Origin: Octopus vulgaris
Taxonomy: Eukaryota
DNA length: 64,000 bases
Assembly (NCBI GenBank): GCA_951406725.2
Contig: OX597824.1
Coordinates: forward strand, 77,128,001-77,192,000
Reading direction: 5' to 3'
The position numbers were made by a program, and so were the translations under genes. Each line of letters begins with the position of its first letter. The first letter of the stretch is position 1. The notes under the pieces were generated by a model that worked only from the letters and a program-made list of their open reading frames with translations, ran no database searches and was not told the DNA's origin. Shown piece after piece: positions 6,697-56,535 of the stretch.

Positions 6697-6900
6697 GGGA
6701 AGCTTTATGAAAATAAACAAAAGACGAAGGCAGGTGGAATACAAACAAACAATTGTATTAGTATGGTGCTCAGGAATATAAATAAAACAAGTCTTTTACG
6801 TTTCGAGCCTACACTCTTCAACAGAAAGATACACAGAAAAGAAACACAGAAAGAAACAAGGAGAGAAAAAAATGCGTGCAGAGCAAATCAACATGGCGAT
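6695..6900 (-). mobile_element. TA-embedded element family H1 with a minimal hammerhead-like motif
   Basis: Minus strand reads tcttt-ctgttga-agagtgtaggctc-gaaacgt-a-aaaga at 6792-6829. Homologous to copies near 18.6, 20.1, 31.9, 37.4 and 50.8 kb. Confidence 0.75.
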
Positions 6901-15593: not shown

Positions 15594-16325
15594 TAGGCCT
15601 TGCAAAATTTGGTGGCCTACTTTAGTGAGAATCTATCTTTCAGCTAAACATCAAAATATTTTATTTATTGCTTCAGATATACAATTATACTGAAAGTTCC
15701 AAGAAATACGAACATATGAAATAAGAGAAACATTGCTATCTTTTGACAATGTCAATACTTTATATCTCTCGATAGAAATCTTCAACAAAGCTAAGCCAGC
15801 CAATGTATATTTGTCATCTTGACATTCTTTTTCAGATTCCATTCTTTTTCTTCGAGATATAAATCTTCTAGATATTACATATTTGAAAATAAAACAGCTG
15901 GCTGCATAAGCTTAATGCCTTCTTTAGTGAGAATATCTAAGTTAAACGTAATTAAACAAGCTCAAAATTTGATGCATGGTTAATTTATTGCTTCAGATAT
16001 AAATTATATCTGAACTTAGTTCCAAGAAATAAACATATGTCTAAATAAGAGAAGTGACAGTTGCACTTCTTTTGAGTCATTTCTCTGATGGCCTTCTTTA
16101 ACTGATTTTGTTTTGTATAAATACTGAACAAGTTCACCATTTTAAACTGGAAATATCCATATGTACATACATACATTCATACATATATACATACATACAT
16201 ACATACATATATATATATACATATATATATATATGCATACATACATATTTGAAAATAAAAATGCATTCATAACTGAATTTAATGTTTCAATAGATGGAAT
16301 TCTAAGTAAATAGTCAAAAAAACCG

Positions 16326-16368
16326 CCACTACAATCGTTTCTTGTCTTGATCGACAATCTTCAGGTGG
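16326..16368 (-). ncRNA. Minimal type-I hammerhead ribozyme, intact core
   Basis: CCAC-CUGAAGA-UUGUC(GAUCAA)GACAA-GAAA-C(GAUU)G-UA-GUGG: stems I, II and III and every conserved core base are present. Confidence 0.8.
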
Positions 16369-17182
16369 ACTTCAATAAGTCAGTTTCAAATTATGAAGTT
16401 ATTATGACTTCATAATTTGAAACTGACTTATTGAAGTCCACCTGAAGATTGTCGATCAAGACAAGAAGAAGAAGAAGTGGTGACAGTTGCACTTCTTTTG
16501 AGTCATTTCTCTGATGGCCTTCTTTCCTTGTTTGTTTTGCAAAATAGTGGTTTATGTCTCTAATAATATTTTATATATATTTTACTATAAAATTGGATTT
16601 AATCCTAAATCTGATTTTTTCCTGTAAATTTGGATTTATTCCCTAATATTTATTATTTATATATACATATATATATACATGTATATATATACATATATAT
16701 ATGTGTGTGTGTATGTATATCTATATGTATTTATGCATAATTTTAATAATTATTACCTATGAGGTTTATATTCCCATGTTAGTCACTTGATATGATCGGT
16801 ATTTTAAATAACGATGTTATCCATATTTATATAAATTTATATATTTACTTCATCATTATATTCACTGCGGTGGTATTTTGACCATATCGCCCGAGGAGTT
16901 TAGGTGGGCAATTTAAATTGGTCATGTGCATATATATGTGTGTATACATGTGTATATGTAAGTATTTGTATGTTGTATACACACATATATATATATATTT
17001 GTATTTATGAGCCATTTTGCATGTATTCCATGGACGAAGGCAAAGCATTTGTTACTCAAGTCAGAAATCCAGGATCTGGAATTATCCAATAATTTTTGCT
17101 AGTTTATTTTGTCTCTTTGTCCTCTCTCCTGGTGCTGTATGAACATTTAATGTGGTTTTATGTATGTACATATATATATATA

Positions 17183-18524: not shown

Positions 18525-18733
18525 GGGAAGCTTTATGAAAATAAACAAAAGATGAAGGCAGGTGGAGTACAAACAAACAATTGTATTAGTATGGCGCTCA
18601 GGAATATAAATAAAACAAGTCTTTTACATTTCGAGCCTACGCTCTTCAACAGAAAGATACACAGAAAAGAAACATGGAGAGAAACAAGGAGAGAAAAAAA
18701 TGCATGCAGAAGCTAGCGATTCAACATGGCGAT
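18522..18733 (-). mobile_element. Family H1 hammerhead-like element next to (TA)n
   Basis: Near-identical to 6695-6900; motif at 18620-18657. Confidence 0.75.
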
Positions 18734-19969: not shown

Positions 19970-20038
<69 letters not shown>

Positions 20039-20040
<2 letters not shown>

Positions 20041-20282
20041 CCATGTTGATTCGCTAGCTTTTGCACGCATTTTTTTTTCTCTCCTTCTTTCTGTGTTTTT
20101 TTTTTCTCTGTGTATCTTTCTGTTGAAGAGCGTAGGCTCGAAACGTTAAAGACTTGTTTTATTTATATTTCCTGAGCGCCATACTAATACAATTGTTTGT
20201 TTGTATTCCACCTGCCTTCGTCTTTTGTTTATTTCCGTAAACCTGCCTTCGTCTTTTGTCTATTTTCATAAAGCTTACCGTT
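20039..20282 (+). mobile_element. Family H1 hammerhead-like element between (TA)n tracts
   Basis: tcttt-ctgttga-a-gagc(gtag)gctc-gaaacgt-t-aaaga at 20115-20152. Confidence 0.75.
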
Positions 20283-20949: not shown

Positions 20950-21660
20950 CAAAATTATTTATGCAAGTTATTCAGCTAAAAAACTGAACACTCATATGTC
21001 GCTTTCATAAGAGGACTCCATCATAGTACAATTTAATGTAGTGTTAGACGGTGTTCCATTAATAAATTGGCTATTTAAAATTTCACTTGGCAAAGACAGC
21101 TTCTTTTCTCAATCAGCAGAGAGAGCGAGAGAGAGATTTGCAAAGAAATTTTGCCAGAAAGTGTTCAGGCTATCGACACTGTTGAAGACATATCCTATAG
21201 CTTGAAGTTGATTTATTTGAATCTTCTGAAACATGTCATTGACGATGTGGTATAACACAATTGTGTTATCTCGCAGCCTAATCTTGTTAATCTTGCTATT
21301 ATCATAATCAATGCATTGTGGACTAAAGATTTTTCTGATTTGGTGATCTATAAAATAGCCAATGTCTACCTAAGAAAAGAAATTCTGTTTATATTTTCTC
21401 TGACTGTTTTTACTCTGAATGAGTACCTTAACCACTATGCCACATACCTTCACTGAACACATGCATATAAAGAGAAGGCTTTATATTTACTTTTTTACCA
21501 ACTACTACAGGTGCACTAGGTTATGTAACAACAGATTTGCATAAATGCCTAGAAATGATGAGGATTTTTTAAGAGACAACAAAGGAAGCTCATACATATT
21601 TTCTAAATACAATCAATTAGCAGAAGTGGGAAAAATTTACAGTACATTCCATAGATTCTC
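20950..21660 (+). mobile_element. Highly decayed hAT (Buster/ZBED5-like) transposase fossil
   Basis: KEILPESV...LKLIYLNLLKHVIDDVV*HNCVISQP aligns by eye in register with the Buster-type KEvaPEcv..HCxxH..kkm..LKsVLDDVVkiVNfikarP region. Many residues are lost. Confidence 0.45.
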
Positions 21661-22699
21661 CATTTACGTTTCCTGGAATGAATACATGCATGCTTTTACA
21701 TATGTATGTGACATACACATGCACAGACACCGGACATGTATATGTAAATAGTAGTGAAACACACAAACTTGTGCACTGAAGTGTCATGTATTCTCCTTAC
21801 AGGAAAGTGAGTTAATTCCACACATGCATCTGTGTATATACATACACTGAGTTATTCACATAATCACAAATTCCAGAAAGAGATTTGACTGAAACAAGAG
21901 AACTTTGTTACTTTGTGTACAACCAGCAGCTAGATTTAATTCAGTCACAAAGAACTAAGTGAACCCAAAGAACTAAATGATAAGTCTCAAAGAACTAAAT
22001 CATGCATGTACACTAAATGTCTAAAAAGTAATCTCAAAAATGCTGGGTTTATAAAGAAGTGCTGAGAACTTGATCAAGTTGAAACCTGTTGAAGAGGGAG
22101 ATCTAATCTAGGAAGACATGGGATGATGGAGTGCAGTCTGATTTGAAAATGTTGAATCTCAAGAAGGAGGTAAAGAGCCACAATGAGTTAATCAGGGTTC
22201 TATTATCAGTTGTATCTATCATGGTCCTCTGGACCATAACAGACCAGTTGCCCACGGAAACTCCTCTATGCTGATGACCTTGTTACTATAGCTGAATGCA
22301 TCACAACCACCATCTACAATTCTAGAGAAAATCTACCGACTGATGTAAGCATAGCAAGAAAGTCATTAAAACAATACTGGAGTTAATTGAATTTGTGATG
22401 CATAATATAGCCTACACAGGGTCCCTCCTTATATTTCTCTTAAGTACCATCTGTCACAAATCTCATAACCTTCTCGCCACTCTCTTTCACTGTTATTTAT
22501 CTTTATTGTTATCCCATCATTATGATCATCATTCCATTTTTCTATTCAACCCTTTTACCAACAACCCAGGAGTAGCTATCACTGATTCACTCTTCTATTA
22601 CTCCTTAGCTTACTGTCCTCACATTCCTATTACACTTTTTGCCCCCAATACATCAATACTCTAGTCTCTCTTCTTTCATTCTCTTGTTTATCTTCTGTC

Positions 22700-24052
22700 A
22701 ATCCATTTCCTTGCATGTTCCTTCCACATGTTCTTTCCATGTTTAGCAATTGGCACTTCTTTATACTGTTGTCCTCATCCATCTGCATCACATGACCATA
22801 CCAGCAAATTCTTCTCTCCTGCACACAACATCTGATGCCTCTTATGCCCAACTTTTCTATAAGCACATCTGTATTTTGTCAAAAATGCATATTGAGGTCG
22901 TACATTCATCAGAGCATACTTGTTTCATTTCTTTCAAGTCTTCACATGTCCTCTACATTCATAGTTCAAATTTCCCAACCATGTAGCACTACTGTTTGTT
23001 CACAGGTACCATATAATCCACCTTTAATTCTGAGAGAGGCTTTTTGTTACCAACACTGAAAGTTCTCTGAACTTTCTTCATCTAATTCTAGGAACCATAC
23101 TTTTACCGTATCCACCTCCATTGCTAATTAGGTCACCTAGATAACAGAAACCACTTTCTATTTTTAAGAAGCCTTCAGGGCATTTTGGAACATATTTCCC
23201 AACACTCTTTCTCTGTTAACCTTTCGTTCATTCCACTGCACCTCTGATGTGTCCATAGTTTGCACTGGGCATTCTATATAGAATTGCTCTCCACACCTTG
23301 TCTATATATGAAACCAGGACATTCGCCTGAAGGAATTAACGTTTTGCTTGTTCTACTGCTAATTAGAATTTTAATCTTTGCTAAGTTAACCCTAAAACCC
23401 TTTGATTCCATTTGATTTCAGGTTTTGTTTCCATACTAGGAATTTTAATTCTAATTTTTTCTATGCAATCAACTATAATAACCAGATCAACAGTATAAAC
23501 GAGTCCCCATGGGCAACTAGTCATAAATTCTTTCATTACATTTTGGAGGACTAGGATAAATAAAAGGGGACTGATAACAAATCCCTGATTTACTCCTATC
23601 TGCACTGGCTCAGGAACGGAGTTCGCTTGGGGAAGGCGGGGGGGGGGGGCAACCCAGGTCCAAAATTTTTTACACACAACGTCTTATTGTTTTTTATTAT
23701 TTCTTTCTATTCTTTGCTCTTTGAGAAGAAACCTAATATCAAGCCACTTTTTACAGATCACATTTTATGTACTGTTTTCTAAACCAAGGAAAAGTAAGTA
23801 GGGGTACAAATTCTGATTTTGCACACTCAACAGAAATCTTAAGAGGTGTGCTTGCAGCCCTGTTATCAGGCCCATGCCTACCTACACATTAAATTCTCTA
23901 CTGTACTCATTGTTAACTCCCTCATTCAGCTAATGGCATCCCTGTATATGGCATGAATGGTTCTCACTTGCCATTCACCTACTTCAAACTTTCTACTAGT
24001 AACCATCAGATGTGGAATCAAGGTGCCCTGGCAAAGGCTTTCACCAGGTCAA
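22700..24052 (-). mobile_element. RTE-clade LINE fossil (RT domain and C-terminus)
   Basis: GVNQGFVISPLLFILVL...CPWGLVYTVDLV (QG..SP.LF and YADD motifs), then GIRGIRCCVQERRICWYGHVMQMDED. Interrupted by an insert at about 23610-23870. Confidence 0.85.
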
Positions 24053-24054
24053 TG

Positions 24055-24125
<71 letters not shown>

Positions 24126-24127
24126 GA

Positions 24128-24833
24128 CAGCGGTGAGCTGGCAGAAACGTTACCATGCTGGGCAAAATGCTTAGTGGTGTTTCGTCTGATATTACGTTCT
24201 GAGTTCAAATTCCGCCAAGGCCGACTTTGCCTTTCATCCTTTTGGGGTCAATCAAAATCAAATTTGATGATTGGCATCCGTGCTAGCGGAGCGCTAAGAG
24301 TACCATATGAGTGAGATCGTTGCCAGAGCAAGAAGCTGGCCCCCGTGCCAATGGCACATTAAAAACACCATTCGAGCATGATCGCTACTTGCGTCACCTT
24401 ACTTGCACTTGTGCTGGTGGCACATGAAAAAACATTCGAGCAAAGTCATTGCCAGTGCTGCTGGACTGGCTCCTGCACCGATGGCACATAAAAAGCACCA
24501 TTTGAGCATGGCTGTGGCCAGTACCACCTAACGGGCCCTCGTGCCAGTGGCACGTAAAAGCACCCACCACACTCTCGGAGTGGTTGGCGTTAGGAAGGGC
24601 ATCCAGCTGTAGAAACTCTGCCAGATCAGACTGGTGTCTGGTATAGCCATCTGGTTCGCCAGACCTCAGTCAAATCATCCAACCCATGCTAGCATGGAGA
24701 GCAGACGTTAAACGATGATGATGATGATGATGATGATGATTGCACATTGGGGTCGATGTAATCGAATTGATCCCTTTGTCTGTCCTTGTTTGTCCCCTCT
24801 GTGTTCAGCCCCCTTGTGGGCAATAAAGAAATA
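24128..24833 (+). mobile_element. SINE family B interrupted by a full-length family C copy (about 24251-24740)
   Basis: B head gagctggcagaaacgtt...gagttcaaattcc, then C from aatcaaaatcaaatttgatg to (gat)n, then the B tail resumes. Flanked by (TAGA)n. Confidence 0.85.
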
Positions 24834-31864: not shown

Positions 31865-32030
31865 CTTTTTCATTCTCTCTCTCCTTATTTCCTTTTATTC
31901 CTTTCTGATGAAGAGCATAGACTTGAAATGCAAAAGACTTTTTCATTTTCCCTGAGTGTCAAACTAATACATTTTCTTGTTGATCATACACCTGTCTTTG
32001 TCTTTTGTTTTTCTATATATTTCAACTATA
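31865..32030 (+). mobile_element. Family H1 hammerhead-like element
   Basis: cttt-ctgatga-agagcatagactt-gaaatgc-aaaag at 31901-31936: canonical CUGAUGA, decayed stems. Confidence 0.65.
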
Positions 32031-32100
32031 TATATATATATTTCGTTTTTGGATTTGGTTTGCAAGATTCTTTATATGAGTTCGTGTGTTGAAGCATATT

Positions 32101-32323
32101 CTGTTGTGTCTGGGGAGAGTCATTTTCTTTTTGTGCCTTATAATGTAACACACTCACTGGTGAAATTTCCACTATTTCTTATTTTTAATTTCCTAAAATT
32201 TTCGAAAATTTTACGAAAACGAAAATTTTAGGAAAATAAAAATAAAAATAAGAGGAAATTTCACCGGTGAGTGTGTTACATTATAAGGCACAAAAAGAAA
32301 ATGACTCTCCCCAGACACAACAG
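32101..32323. repeat. Fold-back inverted repeat of about 100-bp arms in TA context
   Basis: ctgttgtgtctggggagagtcattttc.../...gaaaatgactctccccagacacaacag. A single-arm relative lies at about 34832-34930. Confidence 0.9.
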
Positions 32324-32517
32324 TATATATATATAGTGAGAATTTACAAAAAAACAAATGACAAAACAGGTGTGTAAAATACATACATATATATATATAT
32401 CACGTGACCACGTGACCGACCAGACCATCAGATGTTGTTACACATCGCTGGTCACAATGCGTTCGCATTGTTTTAGCCTTCGAATAACGCCACCCTGCTG
32501 GCTAAGCGAGCAGGCCA

Positions 32518-33804: not shown

Positions 33805-34780
33805 CAGAACCACAAAAGTAATGTTGCACACATACTGAACAGAAACTAGTTTATTAACAGACTGCCATAGCATTGATTGAAGAGTGCTAATGAAGAAACC
33901 ATTCTTTCTTAATGATAAAACGTCATTTCCTGAAATATGTTTGACATCACATGGTGTCATGTGATGATGGAGTGTCCTAGATCCAAAGAGATGAATTCAA
34001 TATCTTGTGTGACCCCTGTTAGCATTGATTACTACCAGGCATCTTATGTACAGTGATTGCAACAAATGATTCATGAAAATCATGGGGATAGCAGCCCACA
34101 CTCTGTTAAAACCTGCAGTGAGTTGTGCCACATTTGTAAGCCTTGGATGGATGTTGTTTAGCCTTCTTTGGATTTTGTCCCACAGGTTCTCAATGGTGTC
34201 CAAGTCCCAACTTAGGGCAGGACATGACAGTGTCTTGATGTTGTGCTGTTGGGGGAAGTTTACTCTCAACCAGGCAGTATGGGCATGGGCTTTGTCGTGT
34301 TGGAACACGTGATTCTGATGATGGGCAAACTATGACACAATGTGAGGCCTCGAAACTTGATTGATGTAGCGAACAGCTGTTACTCCGTTGCCCCAGCCTT
34401 GGCCAATGTTTTGGAAACCATCAGTCCAAGATTCTGGTTGAGTGCAATCCTGTTCAGTACCATAATGTTCTGTCCTCCTCATACAATGAGGCACTGTCCT
34501 CCCCATGGGTCTTTTCCCACCACACACCCATTGGCATGTTATTCACCCCTTCTTCTCCAAACCCTAGCTCTGCCATCTGCCACAGAAATGCAATATCCAC
34601 TTTTGTCAGGGAAGACTACAGTCCTCCACTGCTGATATCACCAGTTCTGACGTTTTTGAGCCCACGGCAGGCATGCCCGTCAATGACAATCTGTGAGGAT
34701 GGGGCCCCTAGCCAGACATCGACAAGACAGATTGAAAGATCTCAGCTGGCTGCAAACTGTCTCTGCACAAGATGAGGACA
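33803..34780 (-). mobile_element. Tc1-family transposase pseudogene
   Basis: FQHDKAHAH...CPALSWDLDTIENLW...ANRGHTRY (ORF 33997-34308) matches the Tc1 FQQDNA.H, WP..SPDLNPIENLW and GGHT.Y motifs. Upstream part is frameshifted. Confidence 0.9.
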
Positions 34781-35307: not shown

Positions 35308-35312
<5 letters not shown>

Positions 35313-35437
35313 TGCAGCGTGGAAGGTCTTTATAAGCCATTTAAGAAACACACAAAAGCCATTGAATGTTGAAGTGAATCTAATGGTTTTTGTGTGTTTC
35401 TTAAATGGCTTATAAACACCTTCCATGCTGCAATTGT
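35308..35437. repeat. Fold-back inverted repeat in (TA)n
   Basis: Arms of about 56 bp, acaattgcagcgtggaagg.../...ccttccatgctgcaattgt. Confidence 0.9.
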
Positions 35438-37258: not shown

Positions 37259-37447
37259 AGGGAGAGTTTACGAAAAAAACAAAAGACAAAGACAGGTGGT
37301 GTACAAAACAAACAAATGTATTAGTATAACGCTCAGGAATAGAAAAAGTCTTTTACATTTTGAGCCTATACTCTTCTACAGAAGGGACACAGAAAAAAAC
37401 GAGGAGAGAAAAAAATGTGTGTAGTAGCTAACGATCTGTCATGGTGA

Positions 37448-44144: not shown

Positions 44145-44250
44145 CTGTGAGAACTGGTGTAATATAGAACAGTGTTCTAGCAAGAATTACAGCATGGATG
44201 AGATGTAATTCTTGCAAGAACACTGTTCTATATTACACCAGTTCTCACAG
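44145..44250. repeat. Near-perfect hairpin, 47-bp arms and 12-nt loop
   Basis: ctgtgagaactggtgtaatatagaacagtgttctagcaagaattaca / tgtaattcttgcaagaacactgttctatattacaccagttctcacag, one mismatch. Confidence 0.95.
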
Positions 44251-44999: not shown

Positions 45000-45360
45000 T
45001 GGCTGACCTGTAGAAGGACAAATGACCAGCGACCGAGACCTTTGGAAATATGCAGTACGTGAGAAGACCAGGCAGGACAAGTGAGCCCAGCCCACTTATG
45101 CATGCCTTTCCTCCCTTGGACACAAAGACCTGTTGAGGCACCAGCCTCACCTGACACCTGTGCGGGTGGCATGTAAAAAGCACCCACTACACTCACGGAG
45201 TGGTTGGCGTTAGGAAGGGCATCCAGCTGTAGAAACATTGCCAGATAAGACTGGAGCCTGGTGCAGCCTTCTGGCTTCCCAGATCCCCGGTCGAACCGTC
45301 CAACCCATGCTAGCATGGAGAACGGACGTTAATCGATGATGATGATGATGATGATGATGA
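45000..45360 (+). mobile_element. RTE LINE 3' end: ORF terminus plus a 3' UTR identical to family C
   Basis: 45022-45084 encodes MTSDRDLWKYAVREKTRQDK* (RTE DR..W terminus), followed by the family C body and (gat)n. Confidence 0.8.
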
Positions 45361-45368
45361 ATACTCTT

Positions 45369-45897
45369 ATCATCATCATCATCGTTTAATGTCCGTTTTC
45401 CATGCTGGCATGGGTTGGATGGTTTGACTGGGGGTCTGGGAAGCCAGGAGGCTGCACCAGGCTCAATCTGATCAGGTAGTGTTTCTACAGCCAGATGCCC
45501 TTCCTAACGCCAACCACTCTGAGAGTGTAGTGGGTGCTTATTAAGTGCTACTGGCACAGGAGCCAGAGGGAGCTGGCATCGACCATGCTTTGGTGGTGCT
45601 TTTACATGTCACCAGCATGGGAGCCAGAAGGGGGCTGGCATCAACCATATTTGGATAGTGCTTTTATGTGCCACTGGCATGGGAGCCAGAGGGGGCTGGC
45701 ATCAACCATGCTTTGATGGTGGTGCTTTTATGTGCCACCAGCACAGGAGCTAGAGGGGGCTGGCATCAACTATGTTTTGATGGTGCTTTTATGTGCCACC
45801 ATCACAAGAGCCAGAGGGAGCTGGCATTGACCATGTTTGGATGGTGCTTTTACGTGCCACCAGCACGGGAGCCAGTCAAGGCAGCACTGGCATCTGC
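45369..45897 (-). mobile_element. Family C with about six tandem 60-bp internal subunits
   Basis: ggtgctttt..gtgccac..gggagccagagggggctggcatcaaccat repeats at 45533-45897. Confidence 0.9.
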
Positions 45898-47278: not shown

Positions 47279-47822
47279 CGGGCCGACCAAAGCCTTGTGA
47301 GTGGATTTGGTAGACAAAAACTGAAAGAAGCCTGTTGTATATATGTATATATATATATGTGACCTCGTGTGTACCGTTGGCGATTTTTTTTCCTCTGTCT
47401 TCCCTTCTCTGGATCTTTCCTTCTCCTATGTTTCCAACGAAGAGCTCCGCTCGAAACGTTAAACCCTCCTTCCTTCCTTCTTTCCTGAGCGTCCAATAAT
47501 ACTATATTTGTTCCACGTCCTCGTGTTGTTGTGTTTTTTTTGTGCTTTCTTGTTTGGATTAACTATATATATATATATATATATATAGTACGTGTGTGTA
47601 TATGTTTGTGCATCTGTGTTTGTTCCCCTAACATCGCTTGACAACCGATGCTGGTGTGTTTACGTCCCCGTAACTTAGTAGTTCGGCAAAAGAGACCGAT
47701 AGAATAAGTACTAGGCTTACAAAGAATAAGTCCTGGGGTCTATTTGCTCGACTAAAGGCGGTGCTCCAGCATGGCCTCAGTCAAACCACTGAAACAAGTA
47801 AAAGAGAGTACAAGAGTGTAAA
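47279..47822 (+). mobile_element. 5'-truncated SINE A with an H1-related hammerhead element (about 47360-47563) inside its internal TA tract
   Basis: SINE A halves on each side; the insert has gttt-ccaacga-a-gagc(tcc)gctc-gaaacgt-t-aaac at about 47430-47464. Confidence 0.85.
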
Positions 47823-49141: not shown

Positions 49142-49151
49142 ATATAGAAGG

Positions 49152-49202
49152 AGCTTCTACAGGACTAGAACTGTTTCATTCAGATGAAATCTTCAGGAAG
49201 CT
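49152..49202 (-). ncRNA. Type-I hammerhead ribozyme inside a loopless 116-bp palindrome (49143-49258)
   Basis: AGCUUC-CUGAAGA-U-UUC(AUCU)GAA-U-GAAA-CAG(UUCUAGUC)CUG-UA-GAAGCU. Core intact, with U.U at the base of stem II. Confidence 0.65.
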
Positions 49203-49331
49203 TCCTGAACATTTCATCTGAATGAAACAGTTCTAGTCCTGTAGAAACTCCTTCTATAAAATAAATTACTTTACTCTGCTATGTATTGAGTACCTTATTT
49301 ACTGTGGTTAACCCCGACTCAAACTGGGACC

Positions 49332-50419: not shown

Positions 50420-50546
50420 ATGTATACAGATATAGGGTGAAAGATAATTAATTTAATAAAATCAACAAATTTCACCTAGTAGTTTTTCGGTATGGAAAAG
50501 GACCATATTCGGTAAAAACTTATACAAAAAGTTCTTTTATATATAA

Positions 50547-50664
50547 TTATAACAATAAGGGTTTTGCAACAAGTTGCTTGACCACATACCGAAAATTTGG
50601 CTGCTATTTCTAAAATTTTCCATATGTGGTCAAGCAACTTGTTGCAAAACTCTTATTGTTATAA
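50547..50664. repeat. Fold-back inverted repeat, 42-bp arms
   Basis: ttataacaataagggttttgcaacaagttgcttgaccacata and its reverse complement, one mismatch. Confidence 0.9.
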
Positions 50665-50683
50665 ATATATATATATGTATATT

Positions 50684-50730
<47 letters not shown>

Positions 50731-50764
50731 CGTTCTTGATTGCTAAATCCACAAGTTTTTTTTA

Positions 50765-50915
50765 TTCACGCTCTGCTTATTTTCTCTTATTCCTTTCTGC
50801 TGAAGAGTGTAGGCTCGAAACGTAAAAGACTTTCTCACTCACCCGAGCATCAAACTAATACACCTGTTTGTTGTCCATACACCTGTCTTCATCATTTGTT
50901 TTACCTGAAAATTTC

Positions 50916-56396: not shown

Positions 56397-56401
<5 letters not shown>

Positions 56402-56535
56402 ATCCAAACATGAAAACACAAAGAGAAAACACAACAACACGAGGACGTGGAACAAGTATAGTGTTATTGGACGCTCAGGAAAAAGGAAAGATTGAGGATT
56501 TAACATTTCGAGTGGAGCTCTTCGTCAGAAACAAT
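56397..56535 (-). mobile_element. H1-related hammerhead element
   Basis: Minus strand gttt-ctgacga-a-gagc(tcc)actc-gaaatgt-t-aaat at 56498-56532; homologous to 47430-47563. Confidence 0.7.

Follow-up and report, generated by a model that had tools for sequence, protein, structure and literature searches.

A recent, probably Penelope-type fold-back insertion carrying a hammerhead motif in the genome of Octopus vulgaris

Insertion units of endonuclease-bearing Penelope-like elements (PLEs) have been described in which the pLTR is inverted, one of the inverted copies bears a 31-bp tail, and palindromes occur at the 5′ end (PMC3846280), and the inverted copy together with its tail appears as a general PLE pattern in PMC8557442. 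Flanked PLE copies in rotifers show target-site duplications of 8 to 10 bp, some having none (PMC3846280). The Anolis PLE protein cuts and extends both DNA strands in vitro, and the tail has been tied to two copying starts (PMC11167929), while de novo PLE insertions in Chlamydomonas have a median length of 128 bp (PMC9977147). For Octopus vulgaris, 31 recently active Penelope-like families have been reported, and the word "hammerhead" occurs 0 times in the accessible text of that repeat annotation (PMC13282606). Hammerheads of PLEs possess a small palindromic helix III, and pairs of them on opposite strands are known; the minimal motif shows no cleavage as a single copy and low cleavage as a dimer (PMC4209133). 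The Anolis PLE hammerhead is cleaved only with the protein and is dispensable for insertion in vitro (PMC11167929). An axolotl hammerhead whose helix III has 2 bp and whose helix II carries a U-U at its base is 22% cut in an hour as a monomer (PMC7229834). Retrozymes, for their part, have been proposed as PLE derivatives.

The locus described here lies in a window of 64,000 nucleotides of O. vulgaris DNA (contig OX597824.1), which is AT-rich, microsatellite-laden, and repeat-rich and contains no clear protein gene. Its features are as follows.

16308 to 16466, no strand: insertion of 159 bp, two head-to-head 5′-truncated copies of one repeat family; ends accurate to about 1 base; joint 16307-16467 found in runs X2 and X6.
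16339 to 16399, minus strand (element sense): arm 1, complementary to arm 2 at 61 of 61 bases.
16308 to 16338, minus strand: 31-bp extension of arm 1 only, containing stem III, the cut site, and the 3′ strand of stem I; delimited by the arms and the empty-allele joint and compared with the PLE "tail" of PMC3846280 and PMC8557442.
16400 to 16406, plus strand: spacer of 7 bases, reading in the sequence as a further 5′ part of arm 2; this junction is variable in other copies.
16407 to 16467, plus strand (element sense): arm 2, whose sequence stops inside GAAA, without stem III and the cut site.
16326 to 16368, minus strand: type I hammerhead motif, from the sequence and a descriptor search; predicted cut between 16330 and 16329.
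16331 to 16338, minus strand: stem III and its loop, the predicted dimer interface; self-complementary at 8 of 8 positions (two of them G-U).
16523 to 16650, plus strand: AT-rich downstream piece of the hammerhead family, from high summed depth and a loose-end match; right end judged from the sequence (the compared stretch ended at 16645).
16480 to 16525, no strand: host segment of 46 bp with the same sequence as 16054-16099; it lies outside the insert and occurs on the empty allele.
16054 to 16099, no strand: upstream copy of the 46-bp segment, in the second tandem unit, from alignments.

The two arms are perfect reverse complements of each other, and 0 differences at 61 sites place their divergence below 4.8% at 95%. 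The inverted-repeat fold has a z-score of −23.8, and 0 of 200 shuffles were equally stable. A small palindrome at 16401-16416 (6-bp arms and a 4-nt loop) is made up of the spacer and the start of arm 2. Element 3′ ends are found at both outer edges of the insert, the left end lying 22 nt beyond the cut site and the right end 9 to 10 nt short of it. No ORF or ORF start was seen in the 159 bp, and the insert holds a single hammerhead copy with no tandem array. The first-pass annotation had described a hammerhead inside a perfect 61-bp inverted repeat; the repeat is indeed perfect, but the segment 16326-16338 (stem III, cut site, and 3′ strand of stem I) lies beyond it, such that 13 of the 43 hammerhead bases, the cut site included, fall outside arm 1.

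To place the insertion in other sequence data, contigs of 4 of 24 sequencing runs (X1, X2, X4, and X6) were compared with 16249-16645. The joint 16307-16467, representing an empty allele, was present at flank depth in one contig each of X2 and X6, with 59 letters on its shorter side and the letters between not given; the depth in X2 and X6 was identical (41.3), and the two are possibly one data set. No such joint was found in X1 contigs. This joint defines the insert as 16308-16466. The left break of the empty allele is the exact start of family homology, and host sequence picks up again at the base following the empty site. A contig of X4 was identical over 86 bases, and neither a host-insert junction nor the window's exact central junction was present in any contig among the 32 of 5,576 pieces listed. 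No target-site duplication is visible in the insert flanks, as judged from an empty-site joint given without its intervening letters. Origin of the empty allele by excision from a filled ancestor is unlikely, since exact removal of the unpaired 31 bp would be needed. The earlier suggestion of a young insertion is therefore borne out, and more strongly, by the empty allele in X2 and X6 contigs and by the 86-base identity in X4. Given the empty allele, the hammerhead family seems to be mobile now.

The surroundings of the insert consist of local tandem units at ~15615-15916 and 15917-16280, with a third unit, carrying a deletion, from 16281 onward. The sequence flanking the empty site on either side aligns to 15917-16280, which itself aligns to 15615-15916; thus, the insertion took place in the third tandem copy, which is internally deleted. 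A repeat of about 47 bp at ~16054 and 16480 had been counted as part of the structure. The repeat is real, albeit with 46 identical bases (16054-16099 and 16480-16525), and it belongs to the local tandem unit outside the insert. It was also rejected as a target-site duplication because it lies away from the insert ends and is present on the empty allele. An apparent extension of the repeat to 73 bp at 89% identity likewise failed, its right part coinciding with the beginning of the family piece 16523-16650, and likely reflects chance or junction microhomology. The 46/46 identity stands within otherwise diverged tandem units, and recent gene conversion possibly lies behind it; depth at the repeat is raised in X1 and not doubled in X2 and X6.

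In the hammerhead motif, stem I is formed by 16368-16365 with 16326-16329 in 4 Watson-Crick pairs, the core CUGAAGA occupies 16364-16358, and the 5 pairs of stem II, with U-A as the closing pair, are capped by a loop of 6 nt. GAAA follows at 16341-16338, stem III has 2 pairs and a 4-nt loop, and GUA lies at 16332-16330. The motif thus contains C3 U4 G5 A6 N7 G8 A9, G12 A13 A14, A15.1-U16.1, and H17, with three helices and both ends in helix I. All core bases being present in the descriptor match, the first-pass statement that every conserved core base is there was confirmed, as was its GUA cleavage site at about 16330, after which the cut is predicted. The strict descriptor matched the window once over both strands and 0 times in 300 dinucleotide shuffles of it. 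No match to the Rfam hammerhead models reached the gathering score over the window, and hammerheads were absent from the 44 matches up to an E of 10 in 16000-16600. Rfam microRNA models gave many matches at the hairpin, all below the gathering score; these reflect the hairpin alone, and microRNA identity was rejected. Nor do the host letters after arm 2 complete a hammerhead.

The motif resembles PLE type I hammerheads (PMC4209133) in having all catalytic bases, a 4-bp helix I without a clear loop 1, a self-complementary helix III, and an occurrence in dispersed single copies. It departs from the metazoan PLE minimal consensus as given in that source at G10.1-C11.1, where it has a U-A pair, and at the extra base between 9 and 10.1, which is absent after A9; it further differs by a 5-bp helix II and a palindrome that needs two G-U pairs. 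The 15.2-16.2 pair together with loop 3 is palindromic, although the chance of obtaining both free loop-3 pairs is ~0.15, and the criterion is weak alone. Since the axolotl hammerhead is cleaved with a U-U at the corresponding place (PMC7229834), the U-A pair does not exclude cleavage.

The insert belongs to a high-copy family. Summed contig depth at the hammerhead relative to the flank was ~1,500-fold in X1, ~26,000-fold in X2, and ~18,000-fold in X6, ratios that are inflated by overlapping contigs and stand for "high-copy," not for a copy number. No hammerhead substitution reached 5 in 100 in X1, X2, X4, and X6 contigs, so that the copy at 16326-16368 represents the majority form of the family, U-A pair included. 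No RNA run was listed as containing the sequence; in X4, guessed to be an RNA run, the family sequence was present with zero depth on the host flanks. Exact-pattern scans for family relatives yielded 0 hits in metagenome contigs, viral contigs, and prokaryote genomes. Counted by hand, at least 18 distinct joints were listed, 14 of them head-to-head (antisense to sense, with just 20 to 26 letters on the shorter side), 3 back, and 1 at the empty site. The central junction exists in at least 3 further versions in other copies, and the inversion point differs among other family copies at many positions. The 21 5′ ends on the hammerhead side (also a hand count) fall at 16391-16404 (9 ends), 16369-16373 (5 ends), and 16336-16347 (7 ends), which coincide with the upstream limit of the compared stretch, the stem I edge, and the stem II entry, respectively; this bunching is a hint only, biased as it is by short contigs and stretch limits.

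Among the 24 rows of loose ends listed, those before 16521 and those before 16307 were seen by eye to be mutually reverse-complementary over 24 letters. This match and the high depth assigned 16523-16650 to the hammerhead family as its downstream part. The piece lies 56 bases from the young insert, continues into a (TA)-rich microsatellite, and would be a separate insertion. The family thereby has a known length of ~250 nt, with no ORF seen, and continues at least ~170 nt beyond the 3′ ends of the insert near the cut site. Near the far end of the piece, 16577-16650 comprises two tandem 37-bp units that are 76% alike. A comparison of 16333-16346 with 16599-16612 showed the hammerhead part to be the rarer one by ~12-fold in X1 and by 2-fold in X6, with near parity in X2, a gap that may stem from library bias or from real differences in family make-up.

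Secondary-structure modeling predicts little activity for the motif at this locus. When arm 2 is included in the RNA, the hammerhead-compatible ensemble is calculated to lie 50.8 kcal/mol above the hairpin, and the predicted block sets in sharply when the RNA starts at or upstream of ~16442. When arm 2 is left out, the hammerhead-compatible fold would account for 0.1 to 2% of the ensemble in a model without tertiary energy, and a competing helix is predicted to occupy part of the core. Stem III has a calculated energy of +0.8 kcal/mol as a monomer hairpin and −5.8 kcal/mol as an 8-bp self-duplex. A dimer in cis with arm 2 is ruled out, since that arm, besides lying on the opposite strand, has no stem III. 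The locus had been put forward as the best candidate for an active ribozyme; this is doubtful for a monomer, in view of the calculated stem III energy, a compatible fraction of at most 2%, and the lack of cleavage by a single minimal PLE hammerhead in PMC4209133. The accompanying proposal that the second arm could silence the ribozyme of read-through transcripts agrees with the calculated thermodynamics, but the arm appears as a permanent by-product of insertion and not as a regulator, inversion points varying among copies. Arm 2 is thus predicted to be a lock on the ribozyme, not a switch.

Fold-back repeats of this general form occur elsewhere in the window. Eight are not microsatellites, of which 2 have a hammerhead core, and a census with a relaxed descriptor counted 6 hammerhead-like sites, a third family (G10.1-C11.1, changed A6) supplying 4. 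These features and related short families are listed below.

49143-49258: second hammerhead fold-back, next to a (TA)n run; arms of 58 bp that abut without a spacer and differ by 2 mismatches, the minus arm bearing the complete motif.
6697-6900, 18525-18733, 20037-20247, 31866-32010, 37267-37415, and 50751-50902: third hammerhead family, six copies of 150 to 240 bp, each ending at (TA)n.
56398-56533 and 47429-47563: two copies, 88% alike, of another short family in which a hammerhead-like core has decayed.
244-390, 32096-32328, 35308-35437, 44145-44250, 45254-45464, and 50538-50673: six more fold-back repeats, arms of 47 to 109 bp, 1 to 9 mismatches; no hammerhead core seen in them.

A fold-back with a hammerhead is not rare even within the window. 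The hammerhead at 49143-49258 is of another family, with a stem I of 5 to 6 bp, a 4-bp stem III, GUA, and U-U at the base of stem II, and both mismatches of its plus arm strike G8 and stem I. Members of the six-copy family have a minimal hammerhead with the extra base, G10.1-C11.1, and a palindromic ACGU, A6 being changed in most. Other repeats in the window include three tandem 142-bp units, 95 to 97% alike, at 1818-2233, whose family also has dispersed copies; a weak DDE_3 transposase match on the minus strand at 34000-34329 (E = 1e-4, below the cut-off); and, on the minus strand of 21500-24300, the fragmented and decayed remains of a reverse transcriptase that look LINE-like, with a Pfam RVT_1 match at 23384-23683 (E = 3e-4, below the cut-off). 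The most abundant repeat of the window is reminiscent of octopus SINEs.

Compared with the PLE insertion units of PMC3846280, PMC8557442, and PMC11167929, the insert shares the head-to-head inverted copy, the 31-bp extension of one arm, the palindrome at the 5′ junction, the hammerhead near an end, and the AT-rich target, the features of a PLE-type unit thus including a 5′-truncated inverted copy, a tail-sized end, and a hammerhead in the terminal repeat. It differs in that no ORF or ORF start was seen, no target-site duplication is visible, and both of its 3′ ends are at most 22 nt from the cut site, away from the far end that is usual in the family. The one-sided extension fits the PLE tail (30 to 40 bp) in size and place, but this agreement could be chance, since both 3′ ends of the insert are near the cut site while the family runs at least ~170 nt further. 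No PLE protein (telomerase-like RT plus GIY-YIG) was found in the insert or among the 148 of 187 complex reading frames scanned, and an autonomous PLE was rejected, no RT plus GIY-YIG ORF being among them and the sole RT match, seemingly a LINE relic, lying 7 kb away. Because the link to a PLE protein is missing, the locus is named a PLE-type insertion and not a PLE.

Based on these comparisons, we reasoned that the 159-bp insertion, composed of two head-to-head copies of a high-copy hammerhead repeat at a site that is empty in X2 and X6 contigs, is most likely a recent product of a PLE reverse transcriptase and endonuclease acting on a short non-coding template. A PLE protein would nick the site and copy the RNA twice, or would copy it once with self-priming at the small 5′ palindrome, as proposed in PMC3846280; two copying starts 31 nt apart would give rise to the tail. 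The hammerhead would be cargo of the family, and its weak cutting would depend on dimerisation via the self-complementary stem III. The ribozyme of this locus is predicted to be dead, as read-through RNA from either side would form the 61-bp hairpin and transcription of the minus strand would make the antisense arm first. The inverted arm, in this best explanation, has no regulatory role. A bolder variant would have the insertion shaped by the hammerhead itself: two RNAs paired via stem III would be passed to a PLE protein dimer, one of them already cleaved (arm 2 falls 9 to 10 nt short of the cut site) and the other intact (arm 1 extends 22 nt past it), and ribozyme dimerisation instead of chance template switching would build the head-to-head repeat. 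We regard this as distinctly improbable. If it were true, the 5′ ends bunched at helices in other copies would reflect the same folded template.

Several other origins were weighed against a PLE-type insertion. The insert could be a stray, dispersed inverted bit of a non-LTR retrozyme whose family is mainly a tandem satellite of ~250-nt hammerhead monomers giving rise to circular RNA. Like the animal retrozymes of PMC7229834 and bioRxiv 10.64898/2026.07.22.740005, the repeat is short, non-coding, and AT-rich (no ORF, G+C of 34% and 21%, known family length of ~250 nt) and carries a type I hammerhead; a 2-bp stem III with a tetraloop is shared with invertebrate and axolotl retrozymes (PMC7229834), and mussel retrozyme hammerheads likewise lack the usual tertiary contacts. 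The locus, however, is inverted and not head-to-tail, with a single hammerhead copy and no tandem unit or array, and 0 of the 18 listed joints are a 3′-to-5′ monomer joint (one beyond 16645 could be missed), so a retrozyme piece appears unlikely. Given that retrozymes have been proposed as PLE derivatives, it would differ from the PLE-type insertion mainly in the life cycle of the family.

An artefact, in which arm 2 was made by fold-back during assembly or library preparation, could account for perfect arms, for the exact junctions being in none of the contigs listed, and for no sequencing run having half of the stretch's words. It is very unlikely nonetheless: host sequence continues at the base after the empty site, near-identical central junctions of other copies occur in short-read contigs from three DNA-type runs, and 7 of the 8 fold-backs in the window have mismatches. 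A selected antisense switch, by which arm 2 would regulate a working ribozyme that is on if transcription starts inside the repeat and off in read-through RNA, would fit the sharp onset of the modeled lock for RNA starting at or upstream of ~16442, yet the calculated 50.8 kcal/mol is not switchable, monomer folding is predicted to be poor, the insert is polymorphic, and inversion points differ among copies; we consider it still less probable than the artefact. Finally, a perfect hairpin with many sub-gathering Rfam microRNA matches invites the idea of a MITE or microRNA-type hairpin with only an incidental likeness to a hammerhead. Its arms, however, are inner parts of an asymmetric family, its outer ends do not form common termini, a duplication is absent, the hammerhead match was obtained in 0 of 300 shuffles, and family contigs extending past 16307 contradict it, making this the least probable of all the origins weighed.

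Taken together, the locus is real and young and most likely ordinary, one more PLE-type stub of a known kind. A search of the literature on hammerheads with Penelope and Octopus or cephalopods, covering mainly the main texts of open-access papers, listed no such families; U10.1-A11.1 variants or families from cephalopods may already appear in the hammerhead alignments that supplement PMC4209133 and PMC8557442. The value of the insertion is modest, as a marker and a test case, and the majority hammerhead of its family carries U10.1-A11.1. Genome-wide counts of filled and empty sites of this octopus family would test two points left open by PMC11167929 and PMC3846280, the origin of PLE inversions and tails and the use of cut RNA as template.
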